Shown here: positions 16,551 to 35,869 of the stretch, piece after piece
How the letters are laid out: every line of letters begins with the position of its first letter
How positions within the stretch are numbered: position 1 is the stretch's first letter
Source: an uncultured Flavobacteriales bacterium
Lineage (GTDB): Bacteria > Bacteroidota > Bacteroidia > Flavobacteriales > UBA1820
NCBI GenBank assembly: GCA_902462305.1
Contig: CABQBC010000002.1
Location: forward strand, 76,825-140,824
Reading direction: 5' to 3'
DNA: 64,000 nt
Program-made: the position numbers and the translations under genes
The notes under the pieces: generated by a model
What the model saw: the letters and a program-made list of their open reading frames with translations, nothing else
What the model was told of the DNA's origin: nothing
Database searches by the model: none

Positions 16551-16560
16551 AGCAAATATG

Positions 16561-17421
16561 TTATACGCTTTCGTTTTTCAAAATTTTCATACACTCCCGG
16601 AGAGAGTCTTTCCATTCGGGCACTTTTACGCCCGCCTTAAATATCTTATCAGTCGCCAGTACGCTGTATGCAGGGCGACGGACAGCCGAAGGGAAAACGT
16701 CCGAGCCGATAGCCTCCACACCCACGTCCATACCAGCCACACGGAATATCTCCACTGCAAAATCGTACCACGAAGCATGCCCACGGCCTGTATAGTGGTA
16801 CACGGAAAAACCATCCACCCCGTTTCCGAGTATTTTCATAGCGGCGCGTGCAAGGTCTGTGGCGTAGGTGGGCGTACCCACCTGGTCGCATACAACCTTC
16901 ACCTCACCTTTTTCACGGCCCAGGCGCAACATCGTCTTCACGAAGTTGTTCCCGAATTCCGAATACAGCCACGCCGTACGTATGACCGCCGCCCGGCATC
17001 CTGACGCTTCCACGAGCCTCTCCCCTTCGAGCTTCGTACGCCCGTAAACGCTCACAGGATCTGTGGCGTCGGTTTCCTTGAGAGGCAAGTGTCCCGTTCC
17101 GGGAAATACGTAATCGGTCGATATATGCACCATAGGTATGCCGTTTTCAAATGAGGCAAGCGCTACATTGCCCGCTCCTTCGGCATTTACAAGGCGGGCC
17201 GTTACTTCGTCCGTCTCGGCTTTTTCCACCGCCGTGTACGCCGCGCAGTTTATCACGGCATCAGCTTTTTCCGAAGCTATCAACCGCGCTATACCCCGCC
17301 GGTCGGTTATGTCGCCTTCGGGCATATCCGTAAACACGAAAATATGGTCCGGATATTCGGCGGATATTTTCCTGAGCGATAACCCCAACTGCCCGCATCC
17401 GCCGGTGACGAGTATCTTCAT
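16561..17421 (-). CDS. rfbD: dTDP-4-dehydrorhamnose reductase
   Basis: MKILVTGGCGQLG N-terminus. 286 aa. 4-nt overlap with rfbC. Confidence 0.93.
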   Translation of the reverse strand: MKILVTGGCGQLGLSLRKISAEYPDHIFVFTDMPEGDITDRRGIARLIASEKADAVINCAAYTAVEKAETDEVTARLVNAEGAGNVALASFENGIPMVHISTDYVFPGTGHLPLKETDATDPVSVYGRTKLEGERLVEASGCRAAVIRTAWLYSEFGNNFVKTMLRLGREKGEVKVVCDQVGTPTYATDLARAAMKILGNGVDGFSVYHYTGRGHASWYDFAVEIFRVAGMDVGVEAIGSDVFPSAVRRPAYSVLATDKIFKAGVKVPEWKDSLRECMKILKNESV

Positions 17422-17996
17422 TGCAATTTCTGTGTCTTTTCGTATTCGCAGCCGGAATCGGCGGCATCACGCAAACGCGGATGCCTACGGTCTTTTTCCG
17501 ACAGTATAATGTCCTGTAATGGCATTTTCCAGTCTATGCCTATGTCCGGATCGTCGTAAGCTATACCGGCCTCGGCCTGCGGAGCGTAATAATTGTCGCA
17601 CTTGTACTGGAAAACCGCCTCTCGGCTGAGAACGGCAAAACCATGTGCGAAGCCGCGAGGTATAAAAAACTGCCGCATATTTTCACCTGAAAGTTCTGCC
17701 GTCACGTACCTGCCGTAAGTAGGCGAGCCCTCTCGGATGTCCACCGCCACGTCCAGCACACGCCCAGACACTACGCGCACGAGTTTTGCCTGGGCATGAC
17801 TTCCCCTCTGGTAATGCAACCCCCTCAACACACCGTAAGAAGATTTCGACTGATTATCCTGCACAAAATCGACCGGGCATACTTTTTTGTCGAATTCCGC
17901 CTTGTTGTAGCTCTCGTAAAAATAGCCACGACCGTCGGCATGGATGGCAGGCTCTATCACGAAAACCCCTTCTATGTCCGTTTCGGTTATTTCCAT
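17418..17996 (-). CDS. rfbC: dTDP-4-dehydrorhamnose 3,5-epimerase
   Basis: Cupin-type RmlC sequence (GVFVIEP..., RGLHYQ, FIPRGFAHGF). Confidence 0.95.
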   Translation of the reverse strand: MEITETDIEGVFVIEPAIHADGRGYFYESYNKAEFDKKVCPVDFVQDNQSKSSYGVLRGLHYQRGSHAQAKLVRVVSGRVLDVAVDIREGSPTYGRYVTAELSGENMRQFFIPRGFAHGFAVLSREAVFQYKCDNYYAPQAEAGIAYDDPDIGIDWKMPLQDIILSEKDRRHPRLRDAADSGCEYEKTQKLQ

Positions 17997-17997
17997 G

Positions 17998-18873
17998 TCA
18001 TTTCCCCGCTAATTTGAGCAGATATTGCCCGTATTGGTTTTTTGCCATCGGCGCGGCGACTTCTTCGAGTTTTTCGCGCGTTATCCACCCGTGGCGGTAA
18101 GCTATCTCTTCCAGACAGGCTATCTTCAATCCTTGGCGTTTTTCCAACACCTCGACAAACGTCGAAGCTTGGGAAAGGCTGTCGAACGTACCGGTGTCCA
18201 ACCATGCGAACCCGCGTCCGAGCAATTGTACCGTGAGTTTTTTCTCGTCCAAAAATACCTGGTTGACGGACGTTATCTCCAGTTCTCCGCGCGGTGACGG
18301 TTTTATGCGTTTCGCTTTGTCCACTACGCTGTTCGGATAAAAGTAAAGCCCCGTGACAGCATAATTGGATTTCGGCGCGGAAGGTTTTTCCTCTATCGAC
18401 AGGACGTTGCCATGCGTGTCGAACTCGGCCACCCCGTAACGCTCCGGGTCGGACACATAATATCCGAACACAGTGGCTTTACCGTCTTTTTCCACCGATC
18501 GTGCGGCATCTTCGAGCATATGTGAAAAACTCTGCCCGTAAAATATATTGTCGCCCAGAACGAGGCACACGGAATCGCCTCCGATGAACTCCTCGCCTAT
18601 TATGAACGCCTGGGCCAGTCCGTCGGGAGAAGGCTGTACGGCATAACTGAGCCTCAGACCGAAATCTGAACCGTCGCCAAGCAACCTTTTGAACGAAGGC
18701 ACATCGTCAGGGGTAGATATGACCAATATGTCGCGTATCCCTGCCAGCATCAGCACCGACAGGGGGTAATACACCATAGGTTTGTCGAAAACGGGGAGCA
18801 GTTGTTTGCTCACGCCCTTGGTTATGGGATAAAGGCGCGTGCCGCTGCCTCCGGCCAGAATTATTCCTTTCAT
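17998..18873 (-). CDS. rfbA: glucose-1-phosphate thymidylyltransferase
   Basis: [19 protein letters not shown]-terminus, typical of RmlA. 291 aa. Confidence 0.95.
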
Positions 18874-18989: not shown

Positions 18990-19847
18990 CTATTTTTCAC
19001 GTCCCAGATCTACCACAGGCGCATTTTTCCAGTCCGTAGCCGCAACTGCCGAGGCAACGTCCGAAAACCGCACTTCGTTAAGATAACGTGTCAGTTTACC
19101 TGCGGCGGACTTCAACCCGACATACGATTTAAACCTGCGCGCCAACGGGAGGCCCTCGACTACCGGTTGCCCGGCATCCAGATCACGCGGATGTATATAA
19201 CTCATAAGATAAGGCTGCCCGGAACTCCATTTTTTTATCAGAAAATACGGGAAAAGACGAAAATACCCTCCGCCGGAGAATATTATGTTCTTGCCGGCCA
19301 TTTTCTTTACGCTCACCGGGAATTCCTTTATCTCGCATCCGTTGTACCGCACGACACTGGGCACAACCTGTCTGTACGATGGCATGCCTCCGTGAGCATG
19401 ATGAGCCGGAAAAACCGAACAGTCGACGTCTATGCCGCATTCTCTCATAACTTCAAACGCCCACGGCTCGCTTTCACGTATAGAAAATCCCGGAGCGCGG
19501 AAGCAACGGACAGGCTTGCCCGTTATATCCTCAAGCAGCTTCACGGACGATTCGAGGTCACGGCGGAAGGCTTCGCGTCCTTGCTGCCATATCAACTGAT
19601 GATTCATCGTGTGCGAGCCTACTTCGTATTTTTCAGCTATGCGGCGTACAATATCCGGATATTTCCTGGCCACCCATCCTATAATGAAGAACGTAGCTTT
19701 CGTGTCCGTTTCTTCCAGTATGCGGAATATACGCTCCATATTTTCATAGATACGGACTTCGTAGTCGTTCCACTGCTGTTCGGTGCGCGTGGAGTCGTTG
19801 TCCAATAGGTGGAACCATTCCTCCACGTCAAATGTCAGGACGTTCAT
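18990..19847 (-). CDS. polysaccharide deacetylase family protein with DUF3473-type C-terminus
   Basis: N-terminal LTFDVEEWFH motif, ATFFIIGWVA, the HTMNH metal-site pattern and the C-terminal SGGGYFRLFPY segment. Confidence 0.85.
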   Translation of the reverse strand: MNVLTFDVEEWFHLLDNDSTRTEQQWNDYEVRIYENMERIFRILEETDTKATFFIIGWVARKYPDIVRRIAEKYEVGSHTMNHQLIWQQGREAFRRDLESSVKLLEDITGKPVRCFRAPGFSIRESEPWAFEVMRECGIDVDCSVFPAHHAHGGMPSYRQVVPSVVRYNGCEIKEFPVSVKKMAGKNIIFSGGGYFRLFPYFLIKKWSSGQPYLMSYIHPRDLDAGQPVVEGLPLARRFKSYVGLKSAAGKLTRYLNEVRFSDVASAVAATDWKNAPVVDLGREK

Positions 19848-21067
19848 CTTTCCAAATTTTTAAATGGATTATACTCCCAAGCATCAAACATAGGATGCGT
19901 AGGGAAAAGCAATATATCTGAGGCTACCAAAGAAGCTATAGGGAAACGTGCATCTTCAGTACACGCCTCTGTACCAGCTACCGTACTTAGCACAGGATAA
20001 TCTCCTGTGGATAATTTCATTCCGGAAGATTTCATAACATCTGTCACTTTCTTCTTAAAACGTTTATCCTTAAACACTGCGGCAAAACGCAAATAATAAT
20101 TGTCCAAGATAGCATCCTGCAGAAATACATCTTTATCAGCCATATGCGACAAATAATATGACCCGTTTTTCTTCCTGATGCCATTCATTGATTTAAGCCG
20201 GTCAAGCATTATCGCTCCAAGGATGTACTGAGCATTGCATAATCCAGAATTTGAACTTATTTTACGATAAGCTTTAAGATTGAATTTATCCGAACTTCTC
20301 TTGCGGGCCAACACTTTATCGGCCAAACAATAAAAAACAGGACGCACTGCAAGTCCGAAAACCGACATTTTAAAAATATATTTCATGTCGCAGAAAAAAC
20401 CACCGTCATATATGCCATTTTGCACATCCAATTCTCTTACCGCACTTACATATTCATCCTTGTATGTGACCACAGCTCCTCCATTGATAGTGCTTAACAT
20501 CTTTGCGCGGCCAAAACTCAATATTGCAAAATCTCCTCTTTGAGATATTATCCCCGGATTATAAATGTCTGTCATCGCAGTTTGGCAGAAATCCTCTATC
20601 ACCGAAAAATTCATCCCGGCCTTTGACTTCAATATGGCACTTATATCGGTAACAGCTCCGAACATATGAGCCACAATTACGGCTAAAGTATTATTAGAAA
20701 TCTTTTCGACTGTTTTCAACGGATCAATACAAAATGTATTAATATTTATATCCGCAAAAACAGGCACAAGTCCAGCATTTTCTACCGCTATCAGTACCGT
20801 AGGACATGTATAAGCGGGGATTATTACCTCTTTCTTTTCCGGTTGCGACGCGGCGAGACTTTTCAACAACGCACAAAGCGCATCCATACCGCTATGGAAA
20901 ATCGCAGATTCTTTCACCGCCAATGTTTTTTCCAATCCCTGTTTGAATTTTGCCCGAGATACACGAATATCCTGAGTAAAAATCCGTTCCATCACTTTCA
21001 CAATATCAGTAAAAGCGATAGGAACAGCCACAGACGGCACCATCATATGATACTTTGGAAATCTCAT
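19844..21067 (-). CDS. DegT/DnrJ/EryC1/StrS-family PLP-dependent sugar aminotransferase
   Basis: Fold-type I aminotransferase layout with SFGRAKML (PLP-lysine context). 4-nt overlap with the downstream deacetylase gene. Confidence 0.8.
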   Translation of the reverse strand: MRFPKYHMMVPSVAVPIAFTDIVKVMERIFTQDIRVSRAKFKQGLEKTLAVKESAIFHSGMDALCALLKSLAASQPEKKEVIIPAYTCPTVLIAVENAGLVPVFADININTFCIDPLKTVEKISNNTLAVIVAHMFGAVTDISAILKSKAGMNFSVIEDFCQTAMTDIYNPGIISQRGDFAILSFGRAKMLSTINGGAVVTYKDEYVSAVRELDVQNGIYDGGFFCDMKYIFKMSVFGLAVRPVFYCLADKVLARKRSSDKFNLKAYRKISSNSGLCNAQYILGAIMLDRLKSMNGIRKKNGSYYLSHMADKDVFLQDAILDNYYLRFAAVFKDKRFKKKVTDVMKSSGMKLSTGDYPVLSTVAGTEACTEDARFPIASLVASDILLFPTHPMFDAWEYNPFKNLER

Positions 21068-21071
21068 TATT

Positions 21072-22058
21072 TCAATAGATGTATTTCGTTACGGCCGACC
21101 CGACCAGCACATTAGCCCACTGAGGCATTATCTTCTTATAAACGGACAGAAGCGTTTTTTTATCCCTCAAGCCACCCGTAACGGGACCAGACTGGTTGAA
21201 ATACAACTGTTTTATCTCCGGTTTCCAATGTTTTTTAAAACCGAGCGTACCCTCGCCCTTGGAACTCCGCCCGAAAGAGAAAACTTTATAGCCGCTATCT
21301 ATGGCGTATTTTATCATCTCGCTGTACGCCAGGTACGGCACGAACAACTTATTGTACTCGTAAAGCGTACCGGCCCAGCAATTCTCTATTATACCGCCGA
21401 ACGACAACAGGAAACATCCGCCGACAGGCTTGCCTTCGTAATACGAACAGAATATTGTAGCCTCACCGTGTTCCCAGCCATCCAACAGGGCGGCAAAAAA
21501 CCGCTTTGGCTGTGGCGGAGAACCGAGACGCGTCATGTTCTTTCGATACACTTTCAGGAAATCGTCCAGAAGTTCGGATTTTCCGCGTTTTACCTCTATT
21601 CCGTTTTCGGAAGCTATGCGTATCTGCCTCCTTACATTGTATTTAAGCCCCGGAAATATACTATCGTGCCCGCCGCTGAGATCCAGATAAGCCGTCACCT
21701 TTTTATCGGAATAATATTCCGACGACTGATGGAAAGACCTTATTTCATACTCTCCGGAAACGGATCTTTCTATCTGCATAGCCACCGCAGGATCGGCACA
21801 TGCGGCTCCTCCGTAAGAGAAATGCGGCATGGAAACGAACCGGCCTTTTATTACCACACCGTTCATAAATCCCGCCATACGGCCAGTGCCATCGTCAACG
21901 TATTTGCGGTATTGCGGCTCATATCCGAACAACCCTGACAATATACGTGGGATCGACGGATTATGGGCAAGGGTGTACTCCCCGGCAACGGGATCCAGAG
22001 AAGATATAAAGTCATCAAGGATATCCCATGAATATGTATCGGATATTATTTCTTTCAC
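21072..22058 (-). CDS. FemAB-like (Acetyltransf_6/GNAT-fold) protein
   Basis: 328 aa. The pattern LKYNVRRQIRIASENGIEV ... FLKVYRKNMTRLGSPPQPKRFF ... GKPVGGCFLL ... FSFGRSSKGEGTLGFKKHW is typical of FemAB-related acyl/aminoacyl transferases. Confidence 0.7.
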   Translation of the reverse strand: MKEIISDTYSWDILDDFISSLDPVAGEYTLAHNPSIPRILSGLFGYEPQYRKYVDDGTGRMAGFMNGVVIKGRFVSMPHFSYGGAACADPAVAMQIERSVSGEYEIRSFHQSSEYYSDKKVTAYLDLSGGHDSIFPGLKYNVRRQIRIASENGIEVKRGKSELLDDFLKVYRKNMTRLGSPPQPKRFFAALLDGWEHGEATIFCSYYEGKPVGGCFLLSFGGIIENCWAGTLYEYNKLFVPYLAYSEMIKYAIDSGYKVFSFGRSSKGEGTLGFKKHWKPEIKQLYFNQSGPVTGGLRDKKTLLSVYKKIMPQWANVLVGSAVTKYIY

Positions 22059-22059
22059 T

Positions 22060-22779
22060 CTATAATCTGTTAAATACTAACATAAGAAAAAACTTGAAGT
22101 CACAGTATATACGTTTAATGCTAACTTTATTAAAAATATATCTGTAGATCATTTCCATTTTTATATCCTGTATCCACTTCGGCGCGCGTTTTACCTTTCC
22201 GGCATATACGTTGAAACTGCCTCCCAAGCCCATCATAGGCACAGGATAGACGCTGTGTATATCGTCGAGCATATATTCCTGTTTGGGAGATCCCATAGCC
22301 ACGAACACAAAATCGGGCCGCTTTTCGCAAATATCCTTTACGAGTACGTCTTTCTCCTGATCGGATTTGAAAAAACCGTTGCGAAAACCGACTATATCCA
22401 TTTCAGGATATTCAACATGCAGCTTTTTCACCACTTCATCTATCACCTGCTGTTCGGCGCCTACCAGATAATACTTCGCTACCGGATAACGCTTTATTAT
22501 CTCCAGCCACAAGTCGCACCCTGCTATCTTTACCGCTCCTTTTACTCCTTTCCTTTCCAAAGCCCATACCGCACCCACGCCGTCGCAATAACCGATATTT
22601 GAGTTTATTATATCCTTGAGCCTTTGCTGGCTGTAATACAGTTTATCGGAATTACATGCCACCATTATGCTTCGCGTGCTTACAGCAGCATCTATTATAT
22701 CGTCAAAACCCGAGAACGAATAAACCTTTATGCCGTTCAACACAGCACCGGGCCTTCCGTAAAAAACATCTGCCGTCAT
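22060..22779 (-). CDS. WecB/TagA/CpsF-family glycosyltransferase (WecG/TagA-like ManNAc(A) transferase)
   Basis: 239 aa. Motifs CDGVGAVWA, YYLVGAEQQV and FVAMGSPKQEY are characteristic of the GT26 family. Confidence 0.85.
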   Translation of the reverse strand: MTADVFYGRPGAVLNGIKVYSFSGFDDIIDAAVSTRSIMVACNSDKLYYSQQRLKDIINSNIGYCDGVGAVWALERKGVKGAVKIAGCDLWLEIIKRYPVAKYYLVGAEQQVIDEVVKKLHVEYPEMDIVGFRNGFFKSDQEKDVLVKDICEKRPDFVFVAMGSPKQEYMLDDIHSVYPVPMMGLGGSFNVYAGKVKRAPKWIQDIKMEMIYRYIFNKVSIKRIYCDFKFFLMLVFNRL

Positions 22780-22788
22780 ATATTTCCG

Positions 22789-23793
22789 CTATATGGTTTT
22801 AACAACAACTCCTCCCCACGAATATCCCACTCCGAAACCTGCCAACAGAATATTCATTCCCGGAGATAACTTACCTTCCTCCATCGCATTGTACAGCGCT
22901 ATCGGCACTGTGGACGAAACTGTATTACCCGTTTTTTCCATATACAAATAGAATTTTTCCTCCGGAATGCCTATTTTTTTACGCAGGAAATTCAACATGT
23001 ATTTGTTAGCTTGGTGAAAAACGAAAAAATCGATTTCATCCATTTTCATGTCGTTTTTCCCGAGAGTTTCATCAACCAGTGCAGGTACAGCTTCGAGCGT
23101 AAAATTGAATATCTCGCTCCCGTTCATGTACAGATAATCCGACGATACCGGGTTTCCGTTTTCATCGAAAGTCAAGTCATTAGCTGCGCCTGGATGACGG
23201 GCCCCTCCGTTTTTAACAATAAGGTTGCCGGCACCTTTACCGTCGGTCCCCAGCCCGAAATCCATTATCTGTGCAATTCCGTTGTCGGAAACGATCGTAG
23301 CCGATGCCCCGTCGCCGAAAATAGTGCGGTTACCTTTGTCTCTGGGATGTATATATTTGTTATATGTTTCAGCCGTTAGCAACAATACATTGCGGGCTAT
23401 ACCCGCACAAACCAGTCCTTTTGCAAGAGAAAGACCGTATATATATCCTGAACAACCCAGATTGAAATCCAGTGCGCCGCACGAAGTACTCAATCCGAGC
23501 CGGTCCTGAAGCACACAAGCCGTAGTCGGCAAAAAATAATCAGGGCTTTGCGTACATAACAGAACAAAATCGACCTCATCCCTTTTCACATTTCCCCTGG
23601 AGAACAGCCTTTCGGCGGCTTCTGCGGCCAAATCGGATGCTGTCTGACCTTCGGAAGCAACATGTCTTTCAGATACGCCTATTTTGGAGGCCACTTTTTC
23701 CACACTCCATTCGGGAAAATCCTTTACCAACTGTTCGTTCGTAACTATTGTTTGCGGGACATAGTACCCGATATCTTTTATATACGCTTTCAT
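22789..23793 (-). CDS. 3-oxoacyl-ACP synthase III (FabH-like KAS III)
   Basis: 334 aa. NLGCSGYIYGL (active-site Cys), HQAN and GNTVSSTVP motifs. Confidence 0.9.
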   Translation of the reverse strand: MKAYIKDIGYYVPQTIVTNEQLVKDFPEWSVEKVASKIGVSERHVASEGQTASDLAAEAAERLFSRGNVKRDEVDFVLLCTQSPDYFLPTTACVLQDRLGLSTSCGALDFNLGCSGYIYGLSLAKGLVCAGIARNVLLLTAETYNKYIHPRDKGNRTIFGDGASATIVSDNGIAQIMDFGLGTDGKGAGNLIVKNGGARHPGAANDLTFDENGNPVSSDYLYMNGSEIFNFTLEAVPALVDETLGKNDMKMDEIDFFVFHQANKYMLNFLRKKIGIPEEKFYLYMEKTGNTVSSTVPIALYNAMEEGKLSPGMNILLAGFGVGYSWGGVVVKTI

Positions 23794-23837
23794 AACTAAA
23801 TAGTTTTTTTAACTTCAGAATATTGTATATGAAAAAA

Positions 23838-24584
23838 TCATTGCAAAGTAAAGCCCCCGTCAAGCACCATGCCGATTCCCGTCATAAAGGACGATGCACC
23901 GGACAAAAGGAAAACCACGGCATAGGCCACTTCTTCCGGCCGGCCGTACCGTTTCATAGGATATTTTTCCATATCTGCACGAAGTTGCTCGCCTGTGATC
24001 GTCCCGGCTTCGAGCAACCCGGTATCTATCATTCCGGGACACACCGCATTCACTCTGATATTTTTCGGAGCGAGTTCCAGAGCGGCTACTCTGACAAACG
24101 AGCTGACCGCTCCTTTCGATGCCGAGTACATGGCATTCCCAACAATGGCGCTGCTCACACCAGCCACCGACGAAATGAACACGATGCTGCCGCCTTTGAC
24201 TATTTTTTTCTTTTTTAACAATTTTTGGGTAAGCAACACTGGAGCAACAGTATTTATATTCAATACCGTTTCCAAGTCGGCACGGTTTACGAATTGTACG
24301 GGAAGAGTCTTCACTATTCCCGCATTATTTACCACACCGTCCAATTTAGGGAGGCTTTCCGCCAAATGCTCTATATCGCTGTCATCGGCCATATCCGCCA
24401 CGAAAACACAATGCCCCTGTCCGTCCATCATTGACAGAGTTTCCCTGAGCCTGTCTTCACTACGGGCAGTTATCATAACGTTAGCTCCCATTCTTGAGCA
24501 TTCCACGGCCGTAGCTCTGCCTATTCCGGATGATGCTCCGGTTACAAGCACTGTTTTTCCTTCTAATGAATACGGGTTGTACAT
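23838..24584 (-). CDS. SDR-family oxidoreductase (FabG-like ketoreductase)
   Basis: TGASSGIGRA cofactor motif and the YSASK catalytic motif. 248 aa. Confidence 0.9.
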   Translation of the reverse strand: MYNPYSLEGKTVLVTGASSGIGRATAVECSRMGANVMITARSEDRLRETLSMMDGQGHCVFVADMADDSDIEHLAESLPKLDGVVNNAGIVKTLPVQFVNRADLETVLNINTVAPVLLTQKLLKKKKIVKGGSIVFISSVAGVSSAIVGNAMYSASKGAVSSFVRVAALELAPKNIRVNAVCPGMIDTGLLEAGTITGEQLRADMEKYPMKRYGRPEEVAYAVVFLLSGASSFMTGIGMVLDGGFTLQ

Positions 24585-24725
24585 AATTTATAATTCTATT
24601 AACGACGGACACATCCCATCCACATTCCAACTCATCCATAAATCCAGAAACAGCCGCGCTATACATATTCCAGAACCGCACGCCCCGTCCATAGTACCTG
24701 GCTATTCCCTCAGAAAGAACCGTTA

Positions 24726-24959
24726 TCAGCCTTTTTTGGATTTGACTATATCGAACAGATCCGCTATCGTACGGGAATTACGGATATCATCGCCTTTTAT
24801 AGTGACCTTATATTCCTGGTCCACCATAGCTATTATCGTCAAAGCCGCAAGCGATGTCCATTCTTCCAAATCACGGAAATTGGTTTCCGGCTTGAATTCC
24901 GACGGATCCGTTTCATCAAACTGAGCTGCAAAATTTTCTACAAATTCTTTTATTTCCAT
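24726..24959 (-). CDS. acyl carrier protein-like
   Basis: 77 aa acidic helical protein. DLEEWTSLAALTIIAMV is the phosphopantetheine-attachment-type helix. Sits next to the KASIII and SDR genes. Confidence 0.75.
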   Translation of the reverse strand: MEIKEFVENFAAQFDETDPSEFKPETNFRDLEEWTSLAALTIIAMVDQEYKVTIKGDDIRNSRTIADLFDIVKSKKG

Positions 24960-24972
24960 AATTGTATCGATT

Positions 24973-25920
24973 TTATTTTGTGTTCTTCAAAGATACGATT
25001 AATTCATTTAGCTTTTCCCTCAACTCCGCACTTACCTTATGCCGGCCGTATAGAGACTCTCCGCTCAGAAGCATATTAAGGCAAAAAACCACCATTCTGC
25101 GCATATCTATCACTAAGACCTCTCCTTCTCCGAGTTTACGTGCGCTCATGGCTCCGCATTCCAACAACCCTTCTCGCAGTTTCCAGGGGTTCCTCCTTAT
25201 ACTGGCAGATTGCAGATGTAATGGTGTTTTTACCGTCAACTCATGGCCGTCGTAGTCCACAACCTTCACATCATATGTTTCAGTATATATTTTTACGGGA
25301 TATAGCGGTCCTACCATATCTTCTACCGCATGCAATTCTGTAATATTATCCATTGTAGCCCCGAACATTACAATCTTCCCGTTGTTTTCTATCAATTTAC
25401 GGTACGGGCTGTTTTGCCCGAAAGGAGTCTCGTCCAAATGGTGGGCCGACACATACTCATCAGCACGCGGGCCTATGGCCACGACCGAATGCGTAGGATG
25501 AAGACTCCGTTTGGCCCCGTCCATCAAAGCAAAATATTCGTTCACCGCACCTACTGCAACAGGTGCAGTACGGACATCGAAAACAGTATCCACATGCGGG
25601 AACGAATACGGGAGCGCCGATAATAAAAGCGTATGTTTTGACGTATCGACAGTCTTTTCAATCCGTTCGGCCAAAAACTTGGTGCCGCCGGCCACCTTTC
25701 CTATATTCATAGTCGAGGTATGAAACATTACATCGCATCCCAACTGCATTTCATCGAATACAGAATCGACTTCCTCTTTAGAAATACGCGTGCGTTTCAT
25801 CCTCTCAGATATCTGCTTCAGATAACGCTTTTCACCCCTGCGCTTTACCGCCCGTTTCAAAAAACCGGGAGCCAACGCAAAAAACACAATGTCGAAATAT
25901 CTTTTTAAATGTCTTTTCAT
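24973..25920 (-). CDS. AAC(3)-fold (Antibiotic_NAT-like) N-acyltransferase
   Basis: Matches the aminoglycoside 3-N-acetyltransferase fold: VMFHTSTMNIGKVAGG, RSLHPTHSVVAIGPRADEY and FGATMDNITELHAVE. Confidence 0.7.
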   Translation of the reverse strand: MKRHLKRYFDIVFFALAPGFLKRAVKRRGEKRYLKQISERMKRTRISKEEVDSVFDEMQLGCDVMFHTSTMNIGKVAGGTKFLAERIEKTVDTSKHTLLLSALPYSFPHVDTVFDVRTAPVAVGAVNEYFALMDGAKRSLHPTHSVVAIGPRADEYVSAHHLDETPFGQNSPYRKLIENNGKIVMFGATMDNITELHAVEDMVGPLYPVKIYTETYDVKVVDYDGHELTVKTPLHLQSASIRRNPWKLREGLLECGAMSARKLGEGEVLVIDMRRMVVFCLNMLLSGESLYGRHKVSAELREKLNELIVSLKNTK

Positions 25921-25938
25921 TGTAAAAACATCTGTTAA

Positions 25939-27207
25939 TCATTTTACAAAGTCATAAGCGCCATTTTTGGATGCCTCAAGCATATAATGTGACATAGCAT
26001 TGAACATGAACGCATTGCTCCAACGCATGTAAGGTATTTTAGAACTCACGCCCTTTTTAAGCTGATAATAAAAATACCCTTTTTCATCCTGCATATTGGC
26101 GATAGTCCAATTCATTACCTTATCGGCAAGATCGCGGCATTTCCCATCGAACCTGTGCAAACGCGAGAGTGTCACAAACAATTGTCCGGGACAGTGTATG
26201 TCTATCGGATAGGTCATGTCATGGTAATACTTCGGAGTGCCGTCGGGCTCGAAAAAATTATTCACGTAAAATTCAAATCCGCGTTCCATGTTGCCGTCAA
26301 AAGACTTATCGCCGGTCGTTTCACCGTAACAAGCAAGAGCGTCGAGATTATATCCCGTATGAAAACTGTCTATCCAACCCTGCACCGGCGAAGTGCCGTA
26401 AACCCACGAACCATCATCTGCCTGAGCGCGACAACATGCCATGACAGAAGCCTGCGCCGCATCCAGGCACTCCCTGTCACCGGTATGCGCATAACACATA
26501 CCCAACAGTTTGCTTCCCAAAAGAGAAGCATTGAAAACGGTATTGTTTCCTTCAAGCGGGCTGTATGAAAACAAGAATCCTCCTTCGAACTCGGTACGAT
26601 GCAGATCGTTAAGCACAAACCGCGATGAGGACAATGCCACGTCGAGATATTTTCCGTTGCCCGTAATCCTTGCGGCATCCTCGAGCGCGGTAGCGCAAAA
26701 TGCAGTCGCCACCACCGTAGGAGTATTCTTGGGGAAAAGAAATTCCAGCCGCGCCTGCCAGTCGAAATTATACCCCCAGCAAGCTCCGCTGTAACCCTCG
26801 GACTTCAACCCTATGAGTATCCCGGCCAGTTCGTCTATCCGCGATATCAATTCTTCTTCATCCCCAAGATACCCGGCCATGAAAGGATGCGCATGTACGG
26901 TTTCGTACAAGTTGCAATAACCTTGCAAAAACAGGCCGACACCTTTGGCATTGTATTCTTTCGGGACCATGAACATACGGCGCAGATTGAACGGCGAACG
27001 CTTGAATCCCTGTATCATCACCAAACGGAGAAACCCGGATTTTTTCAAAAGCGGAATGCTCGAAAACACCTTTGAATTGAGCCCGTCATAAGGGTCCCAA
27101 CCTTTGAACTTCTCCGCCTGACAATACCGGCACAGTTTTTCAAATGCCTTTAAAGTTTTTCCGGCCATTGTATTTTCCGTCGTTCCTATTTCCATTTCTT
27201 CACTCAT
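25939..27207 (-). CDS. conserved hypothetical enzyme, possibly an alpha/alpha-toroid fold
   Basis: 422 aa with no signal peptide. Motifs GWDPYDGLNS, CWGYNFDWQ and DDGSWVYG. I do not recognise the family. Confidence 0.6.
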   Translation of the reverse strand: MSEEMEIGTTENTMAGKTLKAFEKLCRYCQAEKFKGWDPYDGLNSKVFSSIPLLKKSGFLRLVMIQGFKRSPFNLRRMFMVPKEYNAKGVGLFLQGYCNLYETVHAHPFMAGYLGDEEELISRIDELAGILIGLKSEGYSGACWGYNFDWQARLEFLFPKNTPTVVATAFCATALEDAARITGNGKYLDVALSSSRFVLNDLHRTEFEGGFLFSYSPLEGNNTVFNASLLGSKLLGMCYAHTGDRECLDAAQASVMACCRAQADDGSWVYGTSPVQGWIDSFHTGYNLDALACYGETTGDKSFDGNMERGFEFYVNNFFEPDGTPKYYHDMTYPIDIHCPGQLFVTLSRLHRFDGKCRDLADKVMNWTIANMQDEKGYFYYQLKKGVSSKIPYMRWSNAFMFNAMSHYMLEASKNGAYDFVK

Positions 27208-27298: not shown

Positions 27299-28333
27299 CT
27301 ATACTCTATATATTTCATGATAAAATTTGCGGTAGTCTTTACACTCATTATTAACGTTTTTTAAACACCCGCCACTCACCACGCTTACAATTTTATCTGC
27401 AAAATCCACACAATCCCTATTTCTGAACAGTACGGTTCCGCCAGGTCTTGGCACGACATCGGAAGCTACAACAGATTTTCCTAAATATAAAGCCTCGCGT
27501 ATAGAAATTGCATCTCCATCGGTATTGGTCGGCCTCAGTACCACATCCGCCCGAAGGATCAATCGTATAAAAGAAACTGGGGATTCCCAAATCAACACAT
27601 TTTCAGATATACCATATTCGATTATATTGTTTTTATATTGTTCCATCAACAAAACCTGGTCAGTATTGTTAGCGACAACAAACAACAAATAAAAGTTTTT
27701 TAAATTATCATTTGTTTTCAACATGCGGATCATTTCAATACACATGTCCAATCCATATAAGTCGACATTCTCATGCAACACCAAATTCCCGGCATTAGAC
27801 ACCAGCAATACGTTGTTGTCAGATTGCCTGACATTGTCAATCCACGATAACAAATCCGCCGGCAAATCAGATTCAGACTCTACGTCGGGAGGCAAAAATG
27901 CAGGCATAACATAATAACGGCAGGTCGAAGATTGCTTGTATAACATATTGTAAACGACTTGACTCACGCAAACGACTACATTACAACAACCGACAGCCCA
28001 TCTTGTAAATTTAAAAAACGGTTCGATGGACAGATCTCTATGAATGGTCACTATTGTGCGTTTTCTCAAAATAATAGCGCACATGAATACGTTGAACAGC
28101 CGCAAGATATAATGCCCGCTATGTATATGAACGATATCTGCCTGGAAAACTTTCTTCAAATACAAGAAAATATTCAATGAACGAATATTAAAAACACCAG
28201 GGTACCTTACTTTTCCCTCATCGACGAAATCGAACGAATAATCTCCTTTCAACAACGAAACCAGACGTTTGATATGGATACTGACCCCGCCTATATTTTG
28301 CGGTGCAGGACCGATTTGCAATATTCTTTTCAT
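27299..28333 (-). CDS. glycosyltransferase, GT-B fold (GT4-like)
   Basis: I prefer the start MKRILQIGPAPQNIGGVSIH at 28333. C-terminal DGDAISIREALYLGKSVVASDV resembles the EX7E region. Confidence 0.8.
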   Translation of the reverse strand: MKRILQIGPAPQNIGGVSIHIKRLVSLLKGDYSFDFVDEGKVRYPGVFNIRSLNIFLYLKKVFQADIVHIHSGHYILRLFNVFMCAIILRKRTIVTIHRDLSIEPFFKFTRWAVGCCNVVVCVSQVVYNMLYKQSSTCRYYVMPAFLPPDVESESDLPADLLSWIDNVRQSDNNVLLVSNAGNLVLHENVDLYGLDMCIEMIRMLKTNDNLKNFYLLFVVANNTDQVLLMEQYKNNIIEYGISENVLIWESPVSFIRLILRADVVLRPTNTDGDAISIREALYLGKSVVASDVVPRPGGTVLFRNRDCVDFADKIVSVVSGGCLKNVNNECKDYRKFYHEIYRV

Positions 28334-28456
28334 AAATTCACATTTATTACAGACAAGGCCAAAATTCCGATTTCTCCGAACAACCGGTGGTTCCGGTCTT
28401 AAATACAAAAAAAACGAATGATGTGAATGTCATTTTATTACTTTTCAGGGTGGACA

Positions 28457-29776
28457 CTATCTTCCGTTGTATAGTATTATTACCATTGTAGCCATTACTA
28501 CATAGGCATAGTATTTCCAGTCGAGTTTTATCCTTTTTTCGGAATCCATAATGGCACATAACGCGAATATGATCGGGATGAACGTAATCTGGTAACGCAT
28601 ATCCAACGAAACTGCCGAGAGTATCCACATAACAAACCCCATGAAAATAAACACCATCATAGGATATAATTTATAGACATAACCGCGCATTACATACCAC
28701 ATGCCTAAAATAAAATGGTACGACAGCAGGACTTTAACAATAAGCGCTCCACTGAATATTATAGCATAACCATTTGTCCTGTTGAAATTAGGAAAAGGCC
28801 CCATTAACGCACCCACCACCTGTGTCATCCAGTTGAACGAAGAATTATCCGAAACAACGCCGAAACGGGAATTGGACATTTCCAACACCTGTGAAAGAGA
28901 CATGTGTGTAAATCTAGCCAATATTATATCTATAAATACAAGCCCTACAACCATCCCGGCAAGACCTATCCACAGCAGTTTTTTCCTGTTTTTTTCATTT
29001 GCCACAAATATAGCGAACAACGAAATTACGAGCATCAGAGCCAAAGCCACCCTGAAAAAATAGCAGGCAACTATGCTCACTAAAGCCAAAATCAAATTAC
29101 TTACACCGCCTGAATTCTTATAACGGTACATGTAATAAAACGCCATTATTACCAGCAGACAGAATATATTTTCTTTCAGCCCTACGGCAGCTATAGTGGA
29201 TAAAAACGGGGAAAATCCCCACACCGAAGTATAAATGCACGTTGTTTTTTTATCTATTGCCAGCAGCCGCAGAAACCGGAAAAAATAAAAGGCCGAAACC
29301 ATTATTACAGCCGCATTCAGGAAAATCATGAAATTCAACGAAGCGGTTTCGTCGTTACACAAATTGTAAACCAGATACAATATGGTAGGATAACCTAAAT
29401 CGTCTATATTATCATTTGTAAACGTCCATATATATTTCAGCACCTCGCCATAACTCTTACCTACATACAGCAGGCCCTGGTCGTGATATCCATATCCATC
29501 GCCGAGCGCAGGTCCGAAAGGCATACTTGGATCATCTGCAAGGAAAGCCGCCCTTGTCGAAAAAGCCATTACGGCTGACACCGCAAATATCAACGGCAGA
29601 ATATATCTCATCTTGTTAATACGGGACGAGATATATATGAAAAAGACATATACTACGGCAAAAACCGTTTCCAGCCACAGCATATAAGCAGGTATCGCCT
29701 CCTTATACCCAGTAACGACGTAATAGGAGAACAGGAAAAAATATAGAAATAAAGCAATGGACAATACCCTGTTCAC
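28457..29776 (-). CDS. O-antigen/oligosaccharide repeat-unit polymerase (Wzy-like) membrane protein
   Basis: 439 aa with 10 or more hydrophobic helices and low sequence complexity. Located between two glycosyltransferase genes. 4-nt overlap with the upstream gene. Confidence 0.65.
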   Translation of the reverse strand: MNRVLSIALFLYFFLFSYYVVTGYKEAIPAYMLWLETVFAVVYVFFIYISSRINKMRYILPLIFAVSAVMAFSTRAAFLADDPSMPFGPALGDGYGYHDQGLLYVGKSYGEVLKYIWTFTNDNIDDLGYPTILYLVYNLCNDETASLNFMIFLNAAVIMVSAFYFFRFLRLLAIDKKTTCIYTSVWGFSPFLSTIAAVGLKENIFCLLVIMAFYYMYRYKNSGGVSNLILALVSIVACYFFRVALALMLVISLFAIFVANEKNRKKLLWIGLAGMVVGLVFIDIILARFTHMSLSQVLEMSNSRFGVVSDNSSFNWMTQVVGALMGPFPNFNRTNGYAIIFSGALIVKVLLSYHFILGMWYVMRGYVYKLYPMMVFIFMGFVMWILSAVSLDMRYQITFIPIIFALCAIMDSEKRIKLDWKYYAYVVMATMVIILYNGR

Positions 29777-30960
29777 TGTTTCAATATTTTTAATCGTTCA
29801 AATTCAGAATAAAACGTCCTGCCCGATGCGCTTTCACGACAAATTCCGACATAAAACTCCCTGTCGGCCTTTACTTTGTGCAGAAAAGCCATAAGATTTT
29901 CGGCCTCGCTTTGCGATGGTTCCAGTCCGTTCAGCACGAAACCTTCCCTGCCATGCCCGACACTGCGGGCATAGTCGCCGGAATACCGGGTACAAACCAA
30001 AGGCACACCTGCGGCAAGGTATTCGCATATCTTTGTCGGAGAAGATACCTTGTTCAAAACCAGATCCTCCCTGAGCAAAAAACCGGCATCGAGTAGTTTC
30101 AAATGCGAAGGCACTTGTGAAAACTTCAGCGGGAGCACGGCGAAATTTTCCTTTCCCAAACCATCCAGCAAATCCCGTATGCCATCCGTAGGACTGTTGG
30201 TATATATCATAAGGAATACCCTCCGGTCCATCTCCTGCAACATCCTGAACAAGAAGATTATACTCTCTATGTTCTGCCATTTTTGAAGTCCCCCGCAATA
30301 ACCCAGCACAATCCTGTCCTTAAGGTCAATCCCCATATCCGCTACAGGAGCTTCCGAAAAACGGACGAAATCCACCCCGCACGATATTACCGTATAATCG
30401 CCCATTTTCATGCCTGTATTGGCCTCCAACTGGTCCTTAAGATTTTCGGAAACACATATGCAATGGTCGGAATCCTTAATGGACAAAGCCTGGGCGTCGA
30501 GCATCCATTTGACAAACCAGTTTCGTCGGTCCATATTCTTCATGGCTACAACTTCACTGTATAAATCGCCATGGAAATCGGTAACCATGACAGTTCCTTT
30601 TCTGCGGCACAGCCCGAAAAATATTCCCAGTATTTCGCTTTGTATTATATCGTAACGCCTCAGACGCGATACCGCACCGAGGATTACCTTTACGTACGAA
30701 ACCAACAGCCATGTCAGAAACCTGTTCCTGGATATCGGCAGAATATACGGAAATAATATCCAATCGGCACGCTTGTCCAGTTTTCTCTTTTCCACCACGC
30801 CGAAAGGCCATGCAGCGCCTTTTACAAAAGCAAGCACACTGACTCTGTATCCTGCTTTAGCATATGAATCTATGAAACTGTTGAGGCGGTGCCTGGCACC
30901 TTCGTCTATCCTTACATCAAGACCGGGGAAAACCAGAAGAACACGTTTTGTATTTTTCAT
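29773..30960 (-). CDS. glycosyltransferase family 4-like
   Basis: I prefer the start MKNTKRVLLVFPG at 30960. C-terminal SSPTKICEYLAAGVPLVCT resembles the GT4 EX7E region. Confidence 0.8.
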   Translation of the reverse strand: MKNTKRVLLVFPGLDVRIDEGARHRLNSFIDSYAKAGYRVSVLAFVKGAAWPFGVVEKRKLDKRADWILFPYILPISRNRFLTWLLVSYVKVILGAVSRLRRYDIIQSEILGIFFGLCRRKGTVMVTDFHGDLYSEVVAMKNMDRRNWFVKWMLDAQALSIKDSDHCICVSENLKDQLEANTGMKMGDYTVISCGVDFVRFSEAPVADMGIDLKDRIVLGYCGGLQKWQNIESIIFLFRMLQEMDRRVFLMIYTNSPTDGIRDLLDGLGKENFAVLPLKFSQVPSHLKLLDAGFLLREDLVLNKVSSPTKICEYLAAGVPLVCTRYSGDYARSVGHGREGFVLNGLEPSQSEAENLMAFLHKVKADREFYVGICRESASGRTFYSEFERLKILKQ

Positions 30961-31947
30961 ACCAATTCCAGACAATCTTTATACGTTATACTTTCGGCAT
31001 GTTTCATTATATATTTCATAGCATCCAAAGCAGAATACGTAAAATCCTTGGGATGGTCTATAAACACGGACACTTCACCTTTCCTGTTGTTGAGAAAAAA
31101 TGCCGCTGCTACGGACAAAGGTGAAATCCTGGACAATGTGAACATGGCTTTGGATGTACGTGGCGTGGCCGCCGGGGATAAATCCGGACGACAATGAGTC
31201 CCATCGGTTATGACCGAAAGTTTCTTTCTTGAAATACGGCGTGAAATGAAATCCACCCCTCTCCAGACAGCGGGAATAAGTGGTTATCGGCACTTCTATG
31301 AAACGGCCTGAACGGTCTTCTCTGCATACGTCTCCTTCAAATCGGAACAAACTTTTATCCGGAGCTCCGGTAAAGTCATATGCCGAATAGTTATCCCTAT
31401 ATTCAAGCCCTCTCGCAACAGAAGAGTCTATCGTTATTCCCGTTTTAAAAAATGCTTCGGCCAGATTAGCAAAGGGCTGAACGGCCCATCCTCCTGCACG
31501 GAAAGCGCAAACCCGGTAACCGGGACTAACCTGGGAAGCCAGTCCGTTTAGCAGTTTCGTCCCTTTTTCGAACATATCCAACACTTCTTCGGAAGAAAAA
31601 GCGGAAAGACTGTAACGGGAAAAATTGTCGAAATCCCATGTGCCGTCGCCATTATACACCGCATCCTCCCAATGCGGATGAAGATGCAGTTCTATGCGGT
31701 GTCCGCGACGGACTATATCTTTCAATTGGTTCAATATAAGGCCATAATCTTCAATCAGGGCTTCTCCCTGGCGCGACATGGCAGTCAGCATGGAGCAGTC
31801 TACAAAGAAATTCCCCTTGGCTCCGCACCGCTCCATACCGTCCAGTAAAAGCGATGTCGGCTCTATAAGAGTTTTACGCACGGTTCCCGAACGAACGCCG
31901 AAGAACAACTCATAGTCGTATGAAAATATTACCTTTCTTTTGCCCAT
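30957..31947 (-). pseudogene. polysaccharide deacetylase-like gene with an apparent internal frameshift
   Basis: The N-terminal ORF (31075-31947) reads VIFSYDYELFFG ... HRIELHLHPHWED. A second frame (30957-31256) reads ...MFTLSRISPLSVAAAFFLNNRKGEVSVFIDHPKDFT... and ends in TGA. That TGA overlaps the ATG of the next gene (ATGA). The total span is 3n+1 nt. Confidence 0.5.
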
Positions 31948-31962
31948 GCCATCGGTATTTTG

Positions 31963-32826
31963 TTATTTTTTCAGATGTTTATCGAAATACATGAAAATCC
32001 CTTCGGATACATCTTTCTTAAAAAAAGCATCAGTAAATAATGTAGTGTGATCGTAACCGTCCAAAAACACGGTCTTGACACCTATCGAATTTTTACGGAG
32101 TTTTTTCGCGAACGCCTTGTTAGGTATTATCCTCTCATCCGCATCATTTTCCGCCACCAGCACAAAATCAGGTATACCTTTGCCTTTGGCAATATGATAA
32201 TACGGTATCACATCTTCCCATTTACTCATATCGCGTCCGAAATTATCAATAAACGCAACTCCCCACTCGTATATCGTTATCTCATGCGGCGAATACAAAT
32301 AACTTCCTCCGTCATAAGCACATACACCATTTATGTATGAAAAGTCCAGCCCCACCTCCTTCAAATACCTCTCATCGGTAGATACGAGAGAGACCAGATG
32401 CGAACCGGATGAAACCCCGAACAAGAATATATTGTGTTTGTCCCCTCCGTATAAAGCTATATTTTCATAAACCCATTTTATCGCTTTGGAAATATCCCTG
32501 ACCTGTTTAGGGTGTCCGGCCATGTTGAAATTTACGGATACGCTCATATACCCGTTTTCCAACGCATGCGCGGCATGCCAGCCTGTCCATTGCGATTTGT
32601 CGCCATACATCCAGGCGCTGCCATGCACACACACCATTACCGGCAGTTTTTTCCCCGGTTCAAGATTACCGGCATAATATATATCCATACATTGGCCATC
32701 AGCCGTATAACTCACGTCCTGTACGCAGGCGAGCGTATATTCCGAAGGAGGATTCTCCGCCTTGGAACACGCAGCGAAAAATACTGCCAAGACCACCGAA
32801 ACAAACGCCTTAAATCTCGTGTCCAT
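31963..32826 (-). CDS. lipoprotein alpha/beta-hydrolase (esterase/lipase-like)
   Basis: SPII signal MDTRFKAFVSVVLAVFFAAC. VCVHGSAWMYGD (HGG-like oxyanion region) and GVSSGSH (GxSxG). Confidence 0.8.
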   Translation of the reverse strand: MDTRFKAFVSVVLAVFFAACSKAENPPSEYTLACVQDVSYTADGQCMDIYYAGNLEPGKKLPVMVCVHGSAWMYGDKSQWTGWHAAHALENGYMSVSVNFNMAGHPKQVRDISKAIKWVYENIALYGGDKHNIFLFGVSSGSHLVSLVSTDERYLKEVGLDFSYINGVCAYDGGSYLYSPHEITIYEWGVAFIDNFGRDMSKWEDVIPYYHIAKGKGIPDFVLVAENDADERIIPNKAFAKKLRKNSIGVKTVFLDGYDHTTLFTDAFFKKDVSEGIFMYFDKHLKK

Positions 32827-35266: not shown

Positions 35267-35869
35267 TCACCCCCCCCCCGTTTGTAAGGACATCCTTACA
35301 TTAATTCCATCCTTTTTCACTATATACGCAGGGACGCCAACAACAGTACAATTATCCGGAACATCCTTCACTACCACAGCATTCGCTCCGACTATACAGT
35401 TATTGCCCACCGTAACTTTGCCGATTATCTTAGCTCCGGCCTTTACCTGAACATTGTCCAACAGCACCGGAGCATCGGTAGCATTGGAATAACCGATGGT
35501 CACGCACTGGTTTATGTAACAATTATCGCCTATGCTCCTGGCGGCAATGAAAGTAGCGTCTCCGTGTTCTACAAACAGCCCCCTGCCTATGTTCTTAGTC
35601 TCGATATGAAGACTGGAGAGCGCAGGCACATAACAAAGTAAATACTTCCACTTACCTACACGGTAGTAAAACAAGCTCCTGTACTCCTTGTAATGAGCCA
35701 TTACGAAAATGAACTTCGATACCCGGTTGCCTATCCCATACCTGGAATACCTGTTCAGATCGGATAATATCACTTCCTTTTTACCGGAAAACAGAAATAT
35801 AAATATATGAGGCAGCAACAAAGGCGCCCAAAAGCAACATCTTAATATCTGTCCTTTACTCAAGTTCAT
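35267..35869 (-). CDS. serine acetyltransferase-like hexapeptide O-acetyltransferase
   Basis: C-terminal LbH repeats ([40 protein letters not shown]). The last three Gly codons and the stop lie in or against a G10 tract. Confidence 0.85.
35270..35279. repeat. C10/G10 homopolymer tract abutting the acetyltransferase stop codon
   Basis: atcac-ccccccccc-g on the plus strand. The minus strand reads ACG GGG GGG GGG TGA. Confidence 0.95.

Follow-up and report, generated by a model that had tools for sequence, protein, structure and literature searches.

The DNA analysed here, a 64,000-nucleotide stretch of contig CABQBC010000002.1 from an uncultured Flavobacteriales bacterium of the gut (hereafter the window), carries a polysaccharide operon of the capsule/O-antigen kind that occupies the minus strand in a single long run from approximately 38254 down to 14271. 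Within this run, four genes lie head-to-tail on the minus strand at 22789-25920 and encode a KASIII (FabH-like) condensing enzyme, a short-chain dehydrogenase/reductase (SDR), a stand-alone acyl carrier protein (ACP) and a 315-residue protein with the fold of the aminoglycoside 3-N-acetyltransferases, AAC(3) (Table 1). Their neighbours are of polysaccharide type, namely a Wzx flippase, family 4 glycosyltransferases (GT4), WecG, WecB, a UDP-sugar dehydrogenase and RmlABCD. A preliminary description of this DNA had read the four genes as a module that places a short hydroxyacyl group on an amino sugar of the glycan. Each of the genes it named is present with its domains and motifs confirmed, and so is the absence it had claimed: Pfam and NCBIfam scans of all sizeable open reading frames (ORFs) between 14271 and 38254 recovered neither an enoyl reductase nor a dehydratase of FabZ/FabA type. 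Comparative genomics lends good support to the predicted acyl-donor cassette and to its connection with the putative AAC(3)-fold transferase.

KASIII passes the subfamily model NF006829 (281.6 bits against a cut-off of 249) and falls below the stricter cut-off of TIGR00747 (256.5 versus 292.1 bits). Its closest match in the PDB is 3gwa (E 6e-112), and the catalytic Cys-His-Asn triad is conserved in the alignment (NLGCSGY, FHQAN and GNTVSS). Orthologues with 55-71% identity occur at 70 other metagenome loci. The SDR matches the FabG equivalogs with E 1e-47 and misses their cut-offs (TIGR01830, 158.6 versus 297.75 bits; NF009466, 162.6 versus 222 bits). By its profile matches it is therefore classed as a classical SDR with a ketoreductase (KR) domain match and not as a FabG equivalog. 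Its cofactor motif TGASSGIG (TGxxxGIG) and the YSASK motif (YxxxK), with the Tyr and Lys of the catalytic Ser-Tyr-Lys triad, were read by eye in the translation, and its gene is co-linear with the ACP and KASIII genes at most related loci. The ACP scores below the housekeeping AcpP models (25 versus 84 bits). The modifiable serine of the carrier, whose lack would by the preliminary description have refuted its proposal, is present in an intact E-W-x-S-L motif and is invariant across 21 aligned homologues.

The 315-residue protein matches PF02522 with E 6.7e-39 and 134.3 bits (gathering cut-off 25) over profile positions 1-230 of 232, and a profile built from 21 of its relatives retrieves AAC(3) crystal structures with E 2.5e-20. 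An AlphaFold model of high confidence (pLDDT 92.6) bears out the predicted AAC(3) fold. Foldseek aligns it with AAC(3)-III, -VI and -X, FrbF and YokD at E ~1e-17 with target-normalised TM-scores of 0.74-0.78, and the protein is 20-24% identical to the solved AAC(3) structures. In the 21 relatives E199 is invariant and H196 nearly so. Both residues align with LLHHAE of 7lap and 7mqk, which contains the catalytic His/Glu segment ('HHAE') of AAC(3) enzymes. The protein thus shares its fold and conserved His/Glu segment with AAC(3) and FrbF; FrbF, present among the structure matches as PDB 3sma, is a biosynthetic enzyme of this fold and acts on a nucleotide-linked amine. Unlike these enzymes, the 315-residue protein has a basic helical N-terminal extension (approximately 60 additional residues, with a net charge of +13 over the first 46), a constant glycan-locus context, a partner resembling carbohydrate esterase family 4 (CE4) and often a dedicated ACP. 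The resistance-type AAC(3) models all failed (NF033082, 90.4 versus 270 bits; AAC(3)-II, 72 versus 480; AAC(3)-IV, 43 versus 420), and on this profile evidence the protein is not a resistance-type AAC(3). A HMMER scan of 1.84 billion representatives returned 362 proteins at E <= 1e-30, so the branch to which it belongs is sizeable.

Conserved neighbourhoods of the transferase and of the donor cassette

The genomic context of the long-form AAC(3)-like proteins was sampled at 23 independent loci from GTDB genomes and metagenome assemblies, spanning Muribaculaceae, Prevotella, Parabacteroides and Flavobacteriales as well as the betaproteobacteria Roseateles, Paucibacter and Rhodoferax. Neighbours were counted by iterative searches with the window proteins combined with Pfam-annotated gene calls. 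An ACP gene lies within 3.5 kb at 16 of the 23 loci and at none of 38 loci of distant PF02522 members (Fisher p 1.2e-9). The most constant neighbour encodes the CE4-like protein, which is immediately adjacent at 21/23 loci, where it frequently overlaps the AAC(3)-like gene, and within 4 kb at 22/23. KASIII is found at 15 loci, a WecG-family transferase at 14 and the UDP-GlcNAc 2-epimerase WecB at 11. Only in the window (1/23) is a DegT gene found at a distance of 10 kb or less, and DegT is not part of the conserved set of the subfamily.

Around a constant AAC(3)-like transferase the donor genes change from locus to locus. The window and L002 have the arrangement ACP-KR-KASIII, and L138, L131 and L134 have ACP-KAS'-KR-KASIII with two KASIII genes. 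In L133 (10001-15655) the AAC(3)-like and CE4-like genes flank a FabD-like gene, ACP, KR, KASIII and a gene of the metallo-beta-lactamase (MBL) fold. In L057 (12348-14394) FkbH and an ACP accompany the CE4-like/AAC(3)-like pair; FkbH-type enzymes load glyceryl units. Gene order and orientation are shuffled among related loci with closeness retained, which is the usual signature of functional coupling. Since the same gene set recurs in shuffled form at many other loci, the four-gene arrangement of the window is no chance juxtaposition.

A metagenome scan seeded with KASIII yielded 71 loci (L060-L130), nearly all of which hold the ACP, KR and KASIII genes together. Among the 33 of these loci that extend over at least 12 kb, genes within two positions of the cassette were inspected for transferases. 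An acyltransferase was found at 29 and none was recognised in the remaining 4. The classes represented are left-handed beta-helix proteins (LbH, 23 loci; PglD-like, other LbH and a ferredoxin-FrhB-LbH fusion of ~607 residues), membrane-bound O-acyltransferases (MBOAT, 4) and AAC(3)-like proteins (3). No acyltransferase gene other than the AAC(3)-like one stands this close to the cassette in the window. The ACP/KR/KASIII cassette is therefore a portable acyl-donor unit used with at least three unrelated transferase classes (LbH, MBOAT and AAC(3)-fold). At the KASIII-seeded loci an MBL-fold gene often follows KASIII, and its product may be a thioesterase.

The CE4-like partner is a protein of ~330 residues without a confident Pfam match. 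Neither single-sequence nor profile searches with it found anything in the PDB, and it is placed as a putative deacetylase by a fold search and weak Pfam matches. An AlphaFold model of P0121, an intact homologue (pLDDT 91.5), retrieves CE4 polysaccharide and peptidoglycan deacetylases first in Foldseek (3rxz, 3qbu and 4l1g; E 6e-8 to 1e-5, TM 0.5-0.66). PF01522 is matched weakly by 26 of 30 relatives (best E 2.7e-6), the window protein and P0121 being unmatched. The invariant residues include two acidic residues of the first strand (D11 and E13), a His-x3-His motif (H88 and H92), R150 and H300, and these may well be the catalytic and metal-binding residues. Clustering divides the family into two clades: clade A adjoins the AAC(3)-like gene, and clade B, to which P0121 belongs, is approximately 30% identical to clade A.

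A further recurrent neighbour is the 422-residue protein encoded just upstream of the AAC(3)-like gene in the window. In L138 (49% identity), L131, L134 and L004 a homologue directly precedes the CE4-like and AAC(3)-like genes. Its weak Pfam matches suggest an (alpha/alpha)6 barrel, and one speculative role is that of a uronic acid epimerase or lyase. Among distant PF02522 members, the fusion proteins P0384, P0385 and P0392 carry a GH130/GH32/BNR-like beta-propeller or a helical domain of ~380 residues. The beta-propeller fusions fit carbohydrate-related roles. As a Rosetta-stone check, none of the three was found joined to an ACP or CE4-like domain, and BLASTP detected no similarity between the C-terminal domain of P0384 and the 422-residue protein.

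A proposed exchange of N-acyl groups

The most likely reading of our results, at roughly even odds (a probability of about 0.5), is a composite mechanism in which the four genes act as a donor and transferase module for the non-acetyl N-acyl decoration of a polysaccharide, by deacetylation followed by reacylation. KASIII would condense a short acyl-CoA primer, in the simplest case acetyl-CoA, with malonate on the dedicated 77-residue ACP, and the SDR would then reduce the 3-keto group. Because the operon lacks a dehydratase and an enoyl reductase, the product is predicted to stop at a 3-hydroxyacyl-ACP, which with an acetyl-CoA primer would be 3-hydroxybutanoyl-ACP. The AAC(3)-fold enzyme, in which the His/Glu pair is kept, may then move the acyl group from the phosphopantetheine arm of the carrier to a free sugar amine on the cytoplasmic side. 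Use of an ACP-bound acyl group by this enzyme is supported by the near-constant presence of a transferase beside the cassette, which here is the AAC(3)-like protein. Less certainly, the amine would in this enzyme subfamily normally be exposed by the adjacent CE4-like de-N-acetylase, as the adjacency of a deacetylase and an N-acyltransferase suggests a logic of removing the N-acetyl group and installing another acyl in its place. The site of exchange is probably a residue derived from N-acetylglucosamine (GlcNAc) or from N-acetylmannosamine or its uronic acid (ManNAc(A)), given the frequency of WecB and WecG at these loci and the UDP-sugar dehydrogenase in the window.

The window has a reduced version of this gene arrangement, with neither an adjacent deacetylase nor the second KASIII-like gene of its closest relative, L138. 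The comparable segment of L138 (4997-9025, against 22701-25743 in the window) encodes an identical ACP (100%), a KR of 87.5% identity, a KASIII of 90% and an AAC(3)-like protein of 57%. It additionally contains an adjacent clade-A CE4-like gene and, between its ACP and KR genes, KAS', a KASIII-like gene whose product has 352 residues. At this place the window shows nothing but an unrelated ~112-nt spacer. The window cassette thus looks like a one-condensation (deletion) derivative or a mosaic. A similar comparison applies upstream: in the window 18 nt separate the end of the 422-residue ORF from the start of the AAC(3)-like gene, and in L138, L131 and L134 the clade-A gene lies between the two.

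Several observations weigh against the proposed exchange. To our knowledge, the characterised PF02522 enzymes (the AAC(3)s and FrbF) all use acetyl-CoA. Seven of the 23 AAC(3)-like loci (L001, L011-L014, L055 and L132) have no nearby ACP, so either dependence on ACP is not universal in the subfamily or these genomes have their donor genes at another place. LbH transferases are the partners of most cassettes, and the window encodes two LbH proteins in addition to a FemAB/GNAT protein. The basic N-terminal extension was considered as an ACP-docking element and this idea was dropped, the extension being equally basic in members from loci without ACP. The identity of the acyl group is also conditional, as chain length would follow the primer chosen by KASIII and 3-hydroxybutanoyl would require an acetyl primer. 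On the side of the deacetylase, clade B occurs in capsule loci with WecB and without an AAC(3)-like gene (L135-L137), and the window has no clade-A gene at all. The CE4-like family has a single member in the window, a clade-B paralogue encoded 5 kb upstream, which by comparison with the near-identical metagenome contig L060 has lost 5 bp (CATAT) between 31263 and 31262. The deletion shifts the frame at approximately codon 229 with loss of invariant residues including H253 and H300; the rest of the C-terminus is still readable in another frame, up to a stop codon at 30957-30959. The truncated 290-residue product was found in 3 contigs and intact 331-residue forms in more than 170. L060 has a separate 1-bp deletion in a T-run of the same gene.

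This paralogue was considered as an orthologue of the AAC(3)-adjacent partner and rejected, because it clusters in clade B, which occurs without an AAC(3)-like gene. The link between CE4-like and AAC(3)-like proteins is for this reason weaker in the window than elsewhere. The exchange may be impaired in this genome, or the amine may come from PDA285 (18990-19847) or DegT407, the deacetylase and DegT homologues encoded downstream of the cassette.

The order of steps proposed here has well-known counterparts. In the Nod pathway the CE4 de-N-acetylase NodB exposes an amine, the ACP NodF and the ketosynthase (KAS) NodE make a special acyl group, and NodA transfers this group from ACP to the amine. 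Nod factor N-acylation therefore follows the same logic, with several differences. The AAC(3)-like transferase is not homologous to NodA, and the ketosynthase is of KASIII type rather than KASII-like as NodE is. A short, hydroxylated acyl group is predicted here in place of a long polyunsaturated chain, and the acceptor would be a capsule or O-antigen precursor rather than a chitooligosaccharide. In lipid A synthesis LpxC removes the N-acetyl group of a UDP-sugar and LpxD then N-acylates it with an (R)-3-hydroxyacyl-ACP. The order of steps is again the same, but LpxC/LpxD have unrelated folds (the LpxC fold and LbH), use the housekeeping ACP and transfer long chains.

Similar donor genes stand in the O-polysaccharide locus of Flavobacterium psychrophilum (wfpC-G), where the products of wfpC-F (two KAS, an ACP and a ketoreductase) would, by prediction, assemble a 3,5-dihydroxyhexanoyl group through an ACP-bound donor (PMC6519341). 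The 3,5-dihydroxyhexanoyl amide is structurally proven there on Qui2NAc4N, with a PglD homologue as the predicted transferase (PMC6519341). This two-KAS architecture (KAS-ACP-KAS-ketoreductase) recurs in L138, L131 and L134, whereas the window has a single KAS; by comparison, a one-KAS cassette would yield a 3-hydroxy C4 group. F. psychrophilum differs in its PglD-type LbH transferase and in an amine made by a PglE-type aminotransferase, where the present subfamily has an AAC(3)-fold transferase and a deacetylase partner. The kind of product predicted here is known from Acinetobacter baumannii, in which the QhbC, LgaH/I and PsaG/H modules give N-(3-hydroxybutanoyl) amino sugars in the capsule (PMC9676051). 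No carrier-protein or ketosynthase genes are listed for those modules, and the amine is derived from an aminotransferase. The 3-hydroxybutanoic acid of Bacteroides fragilis PS A2 was considered as a further precedent and rejected, being ether-linked to a heptose and not an amide. The literature search found no described ManNAcA bearing a hydroxybutanoyl group. Nor did the searchable literature contain a relevant description of AAC(3)/Antibiotic_NAT proteins tied to polysaccharide, ACP or O-antigen, and an ACP-bound donor would be new for the AAC(3) fold.

By analogy, the module would work like NodB/NodA/NodFE and resembles the pathway predicted for F. psychrophilum, with a transferase of different fold. 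A broader generalisation is conceivable and has to be held more tentatively than the mechanism for the window itself. According to this generalisation, CE4-like and AAC(3)-fold proteins would form a conserved pair for N-acyl exchange in capsule and O-antigen loci of Bacteroidota and Betaproteobacteria, supplied by ACPs that are loaded by interchangeable cassettes. KASIII with KR would provide 3-hydroxyacyl groups, two KASIII dihydroxyacyl groups and FkbH glyceryl groups. The AAC(3)-fold enzyme would then be the first ACP-dependent member of its fold, and the system a non-homologous analogue of NodB/NodA/NodFE.

The question is of wider relevance given that non-acetyl N-acyl groups influence how antigenic bacterial surface glycans are and what charge they carry, also for those gut Bacteroidota glycans with which the immune system interacts. 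Should the proposed exchange be correct, part of an 'aminoglycoside resistance' fold would be reassigned to glycan tailoring, which bears on resistome surveys that count PF02522 matches in gut metagenomes. The exchange would also give a function to a CE4-like family that Pfam does not match with confidence, and would add acyl-ACP as a new type of donor for the AAC(3) fold. The portability of the cassette among transferase classes also helps to predict glycan decorations from sequence.

Alternative donors, acceptors and functions

The preliminary description's reading as a module holds in part. Its donor and transferase components are strengthened by the recurrence of the cassette at 71 loci and by the enrichment of ACP genes around the AAC(3)-like subfamily (16/23 versus 0/38), and its choice of DegT as the source of the amine is not.

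The alternative that survives best, although unlikely, is that the AAC(3)-like enzyme works as a conventional N-acyltransferase with an acyl-CoA such as acetyl-CoA as donor and is unrelated to the ACP, the 3-hydroxyacyl-ACP being used instead by one of the LbH proteins (LbH273 or Hexapep200) or by FemAB328. Such an enzyme would behave like the PF02522 members that we know to use acetyl-CoA and would account for the seven AAC(3)-like loci without ACP. The cassette has an LbH transferase at 23 of the 33 loci, and a weak LbH273-like match lies beside it in L110. However, only 13 nt separate the AAC(3)-like stop codon from the start of the ACP gene in the window, and the ACP enrichment around the subfamily as a whole is strong (p 1.2e-9). 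Both LbH proteins resemble O-acetyltransferases and are encoded 7-10 kb away, and deacetylation by a CE4 enzyme followed by re-acetylation would be futile.

More doubtful still is a route in which the cassette and the AAC(3)-fold transferase function as described and the acceptor is a nucleoside diphosphate-4-amino-4,6-dideoxyhexose, formed by DegT407 from an intermediate of the Rml pathway. RmlA, a dTDP-glucose 4,6-dehydratase and a DegT-family gene do share the operon, and the missing adjacent CE4-like partner together with the frameshift in its paralogue makes another source of amine plausible at this particular locus. Against this, DegT407 is divergent (126 bits to Pfam), and only its N-terminal half (residues 38-216) matches models of sugar aminotransferases, RfbH being the best. 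Its gene has the FemAB-like and deacetylase/DUF3473 genes as neighbours and is the third gene downstream of the cassette, past WecG, and a DegT gene accompanies the AAC(3)-like gene at a single locus of 23, the window. The DegT-made amino sugar that the preliminary description had named as acceptor is for these reasons not supported. The constant partner of the subfamily is instead a protein of CE4-like de-N-acetylase fold, which suggests that the amine is exposed by de-N-acetylation.

That the 315-residue protein is an aminoglycoside 3-N-acetyltransferase resistance gene product lying in the operon by accident is very improbable despite its PF02522 membership and the name 'aminoglycoside 3-N-acetyltransferase' borne by relatives in source records, given 90 versus 270 bits on the AAC(3) equivalog with every subtype model far from reached, its 20-24% identity to solved AAC(3) with an extra N-terminal extension, and a glycan-locus context conserved over two phyla.

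Setting within the polysaccharide operon

The features of the operon are listed in Table 1. At its upstream end, the UDP-sugar dehydrogenase and WecB probably provide a route to UDP-ManNAc(A).

Table 1. Features of the polysaccharide operon, by position in the window
Position	Strand	Feature	Supporting matches and remarks
15474-18873		RmlA, RmlC, RmlD, RmlB	
18990-19847	-	PDA285, polysaccharide deacetylase with DUF3473	TIGR03006-like, 244 bits vs cut-off 276
19844-21067	-	DegT407, divergent DegT	
21072-22058	-	FemAB328, FemAB/GNAT-like protein	TIGR03019-like
22060-22779	-	WecG/TagA-family glycosyltransferase, 239 aa	PF03808 E 1.6e-43; top specific NCBIfam match ManNAcA transferase NF002980
22789-23793	-	KASIII (FabH-like) condensing enzyme, 334 aa	NF006829, PF08541, PF08545
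23838-24584	-	Classical SDR, FabG-like KR, 248 aa	adh_short_C2 E 2e-56; KR domain E 1e-10
24726-24959	-	Stand-alone ACP, 77 aa, pI 4.4	PF00550 E 2.6e-7, 31.2 bits vs 20.8
24973-25920	-	AAC(3)-fold putative N-acyltransferase, 315 aa	PF02522 Antibiotic_NAT
25939-27207	-	422-aa protein	Weak Pfam matches GH88, GH76, GH127
27299-28408	-	GT4 glycosyltransferase	
28457-29776	-	439-aa ORF between the two GT4 genes	No family match
29773-30975	-	GT4 glycosyltransferase	
30957-31947	-	CE4-like gene, clade B, frameshifted	Called ORF 31075-31947, 290 aa, no Pfam match; intact form 331 aa
31963-32826	-	Alpha/beta hydrolase	
32810-33631	-	LbH273, O-acetyltransferase-like LbH protein, 273 aa; rival transferase	Top NCBIfam matches WbbJ, WcaF, maltose O-acetyltransferase
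33624-35105	-	Wzx flippase	
35267-35869	-	Hexapep200, serine O-acetyltransferase/EpsC-like LbH protein, 200 aa; rival transferase	NF041874 E 4e-27; NeuD/PglB/VioB E 6e-14
35866-37017	-	UDP-GlcNAc 2-epimerase WecB	TIGR00236, 500 bits
37052-38254	-	UDP-sugar dehydrogenase	

The G+C content is 0.40-0.46 between 20 and 36 kb of the window and approximately 0.50 in the flanks, which fits a horizontally exchanged variable part of a polysaccharide locus. The 90% identity clusters that hold window proteins are labelled Odoribacter splanchnicus or as metagenome-assembled genomes of 'Flavobacteriales bacterium'. An origin from E. coli was rejected, since megablast with 19800-26000 gave no match in 5,426 complete E. 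coli genomes.

Downstream of WecG, the deacetylase, DegT and FemAB genes at 18990-22058 are a candidate for a separate amine-modifying set, which could constitute a second system of deacetylation followed by acylation or aminoacylation. Of these three genes, only a homologue of the deacetylase recurs near the AAC(3)-like subfamily (L003 and L132), and neither DegT nor FemAB does. The models matched by PDA285 and the FemAB-like protein are usual in XrtA/PEP-CTERM exopolysaccharide loci, and here both proteins are encoded inside a Bacteroidota capsule locus.

For the GT4 gene that follows the clade-B CE4-like gene, the called start (TTG at 30975) is probably an error. There is an ATG at 30960 that shares bases (ATGA) with the stop codon closing the restored CE4-like frame, and this overlap suggests translational coupling of the two genes.

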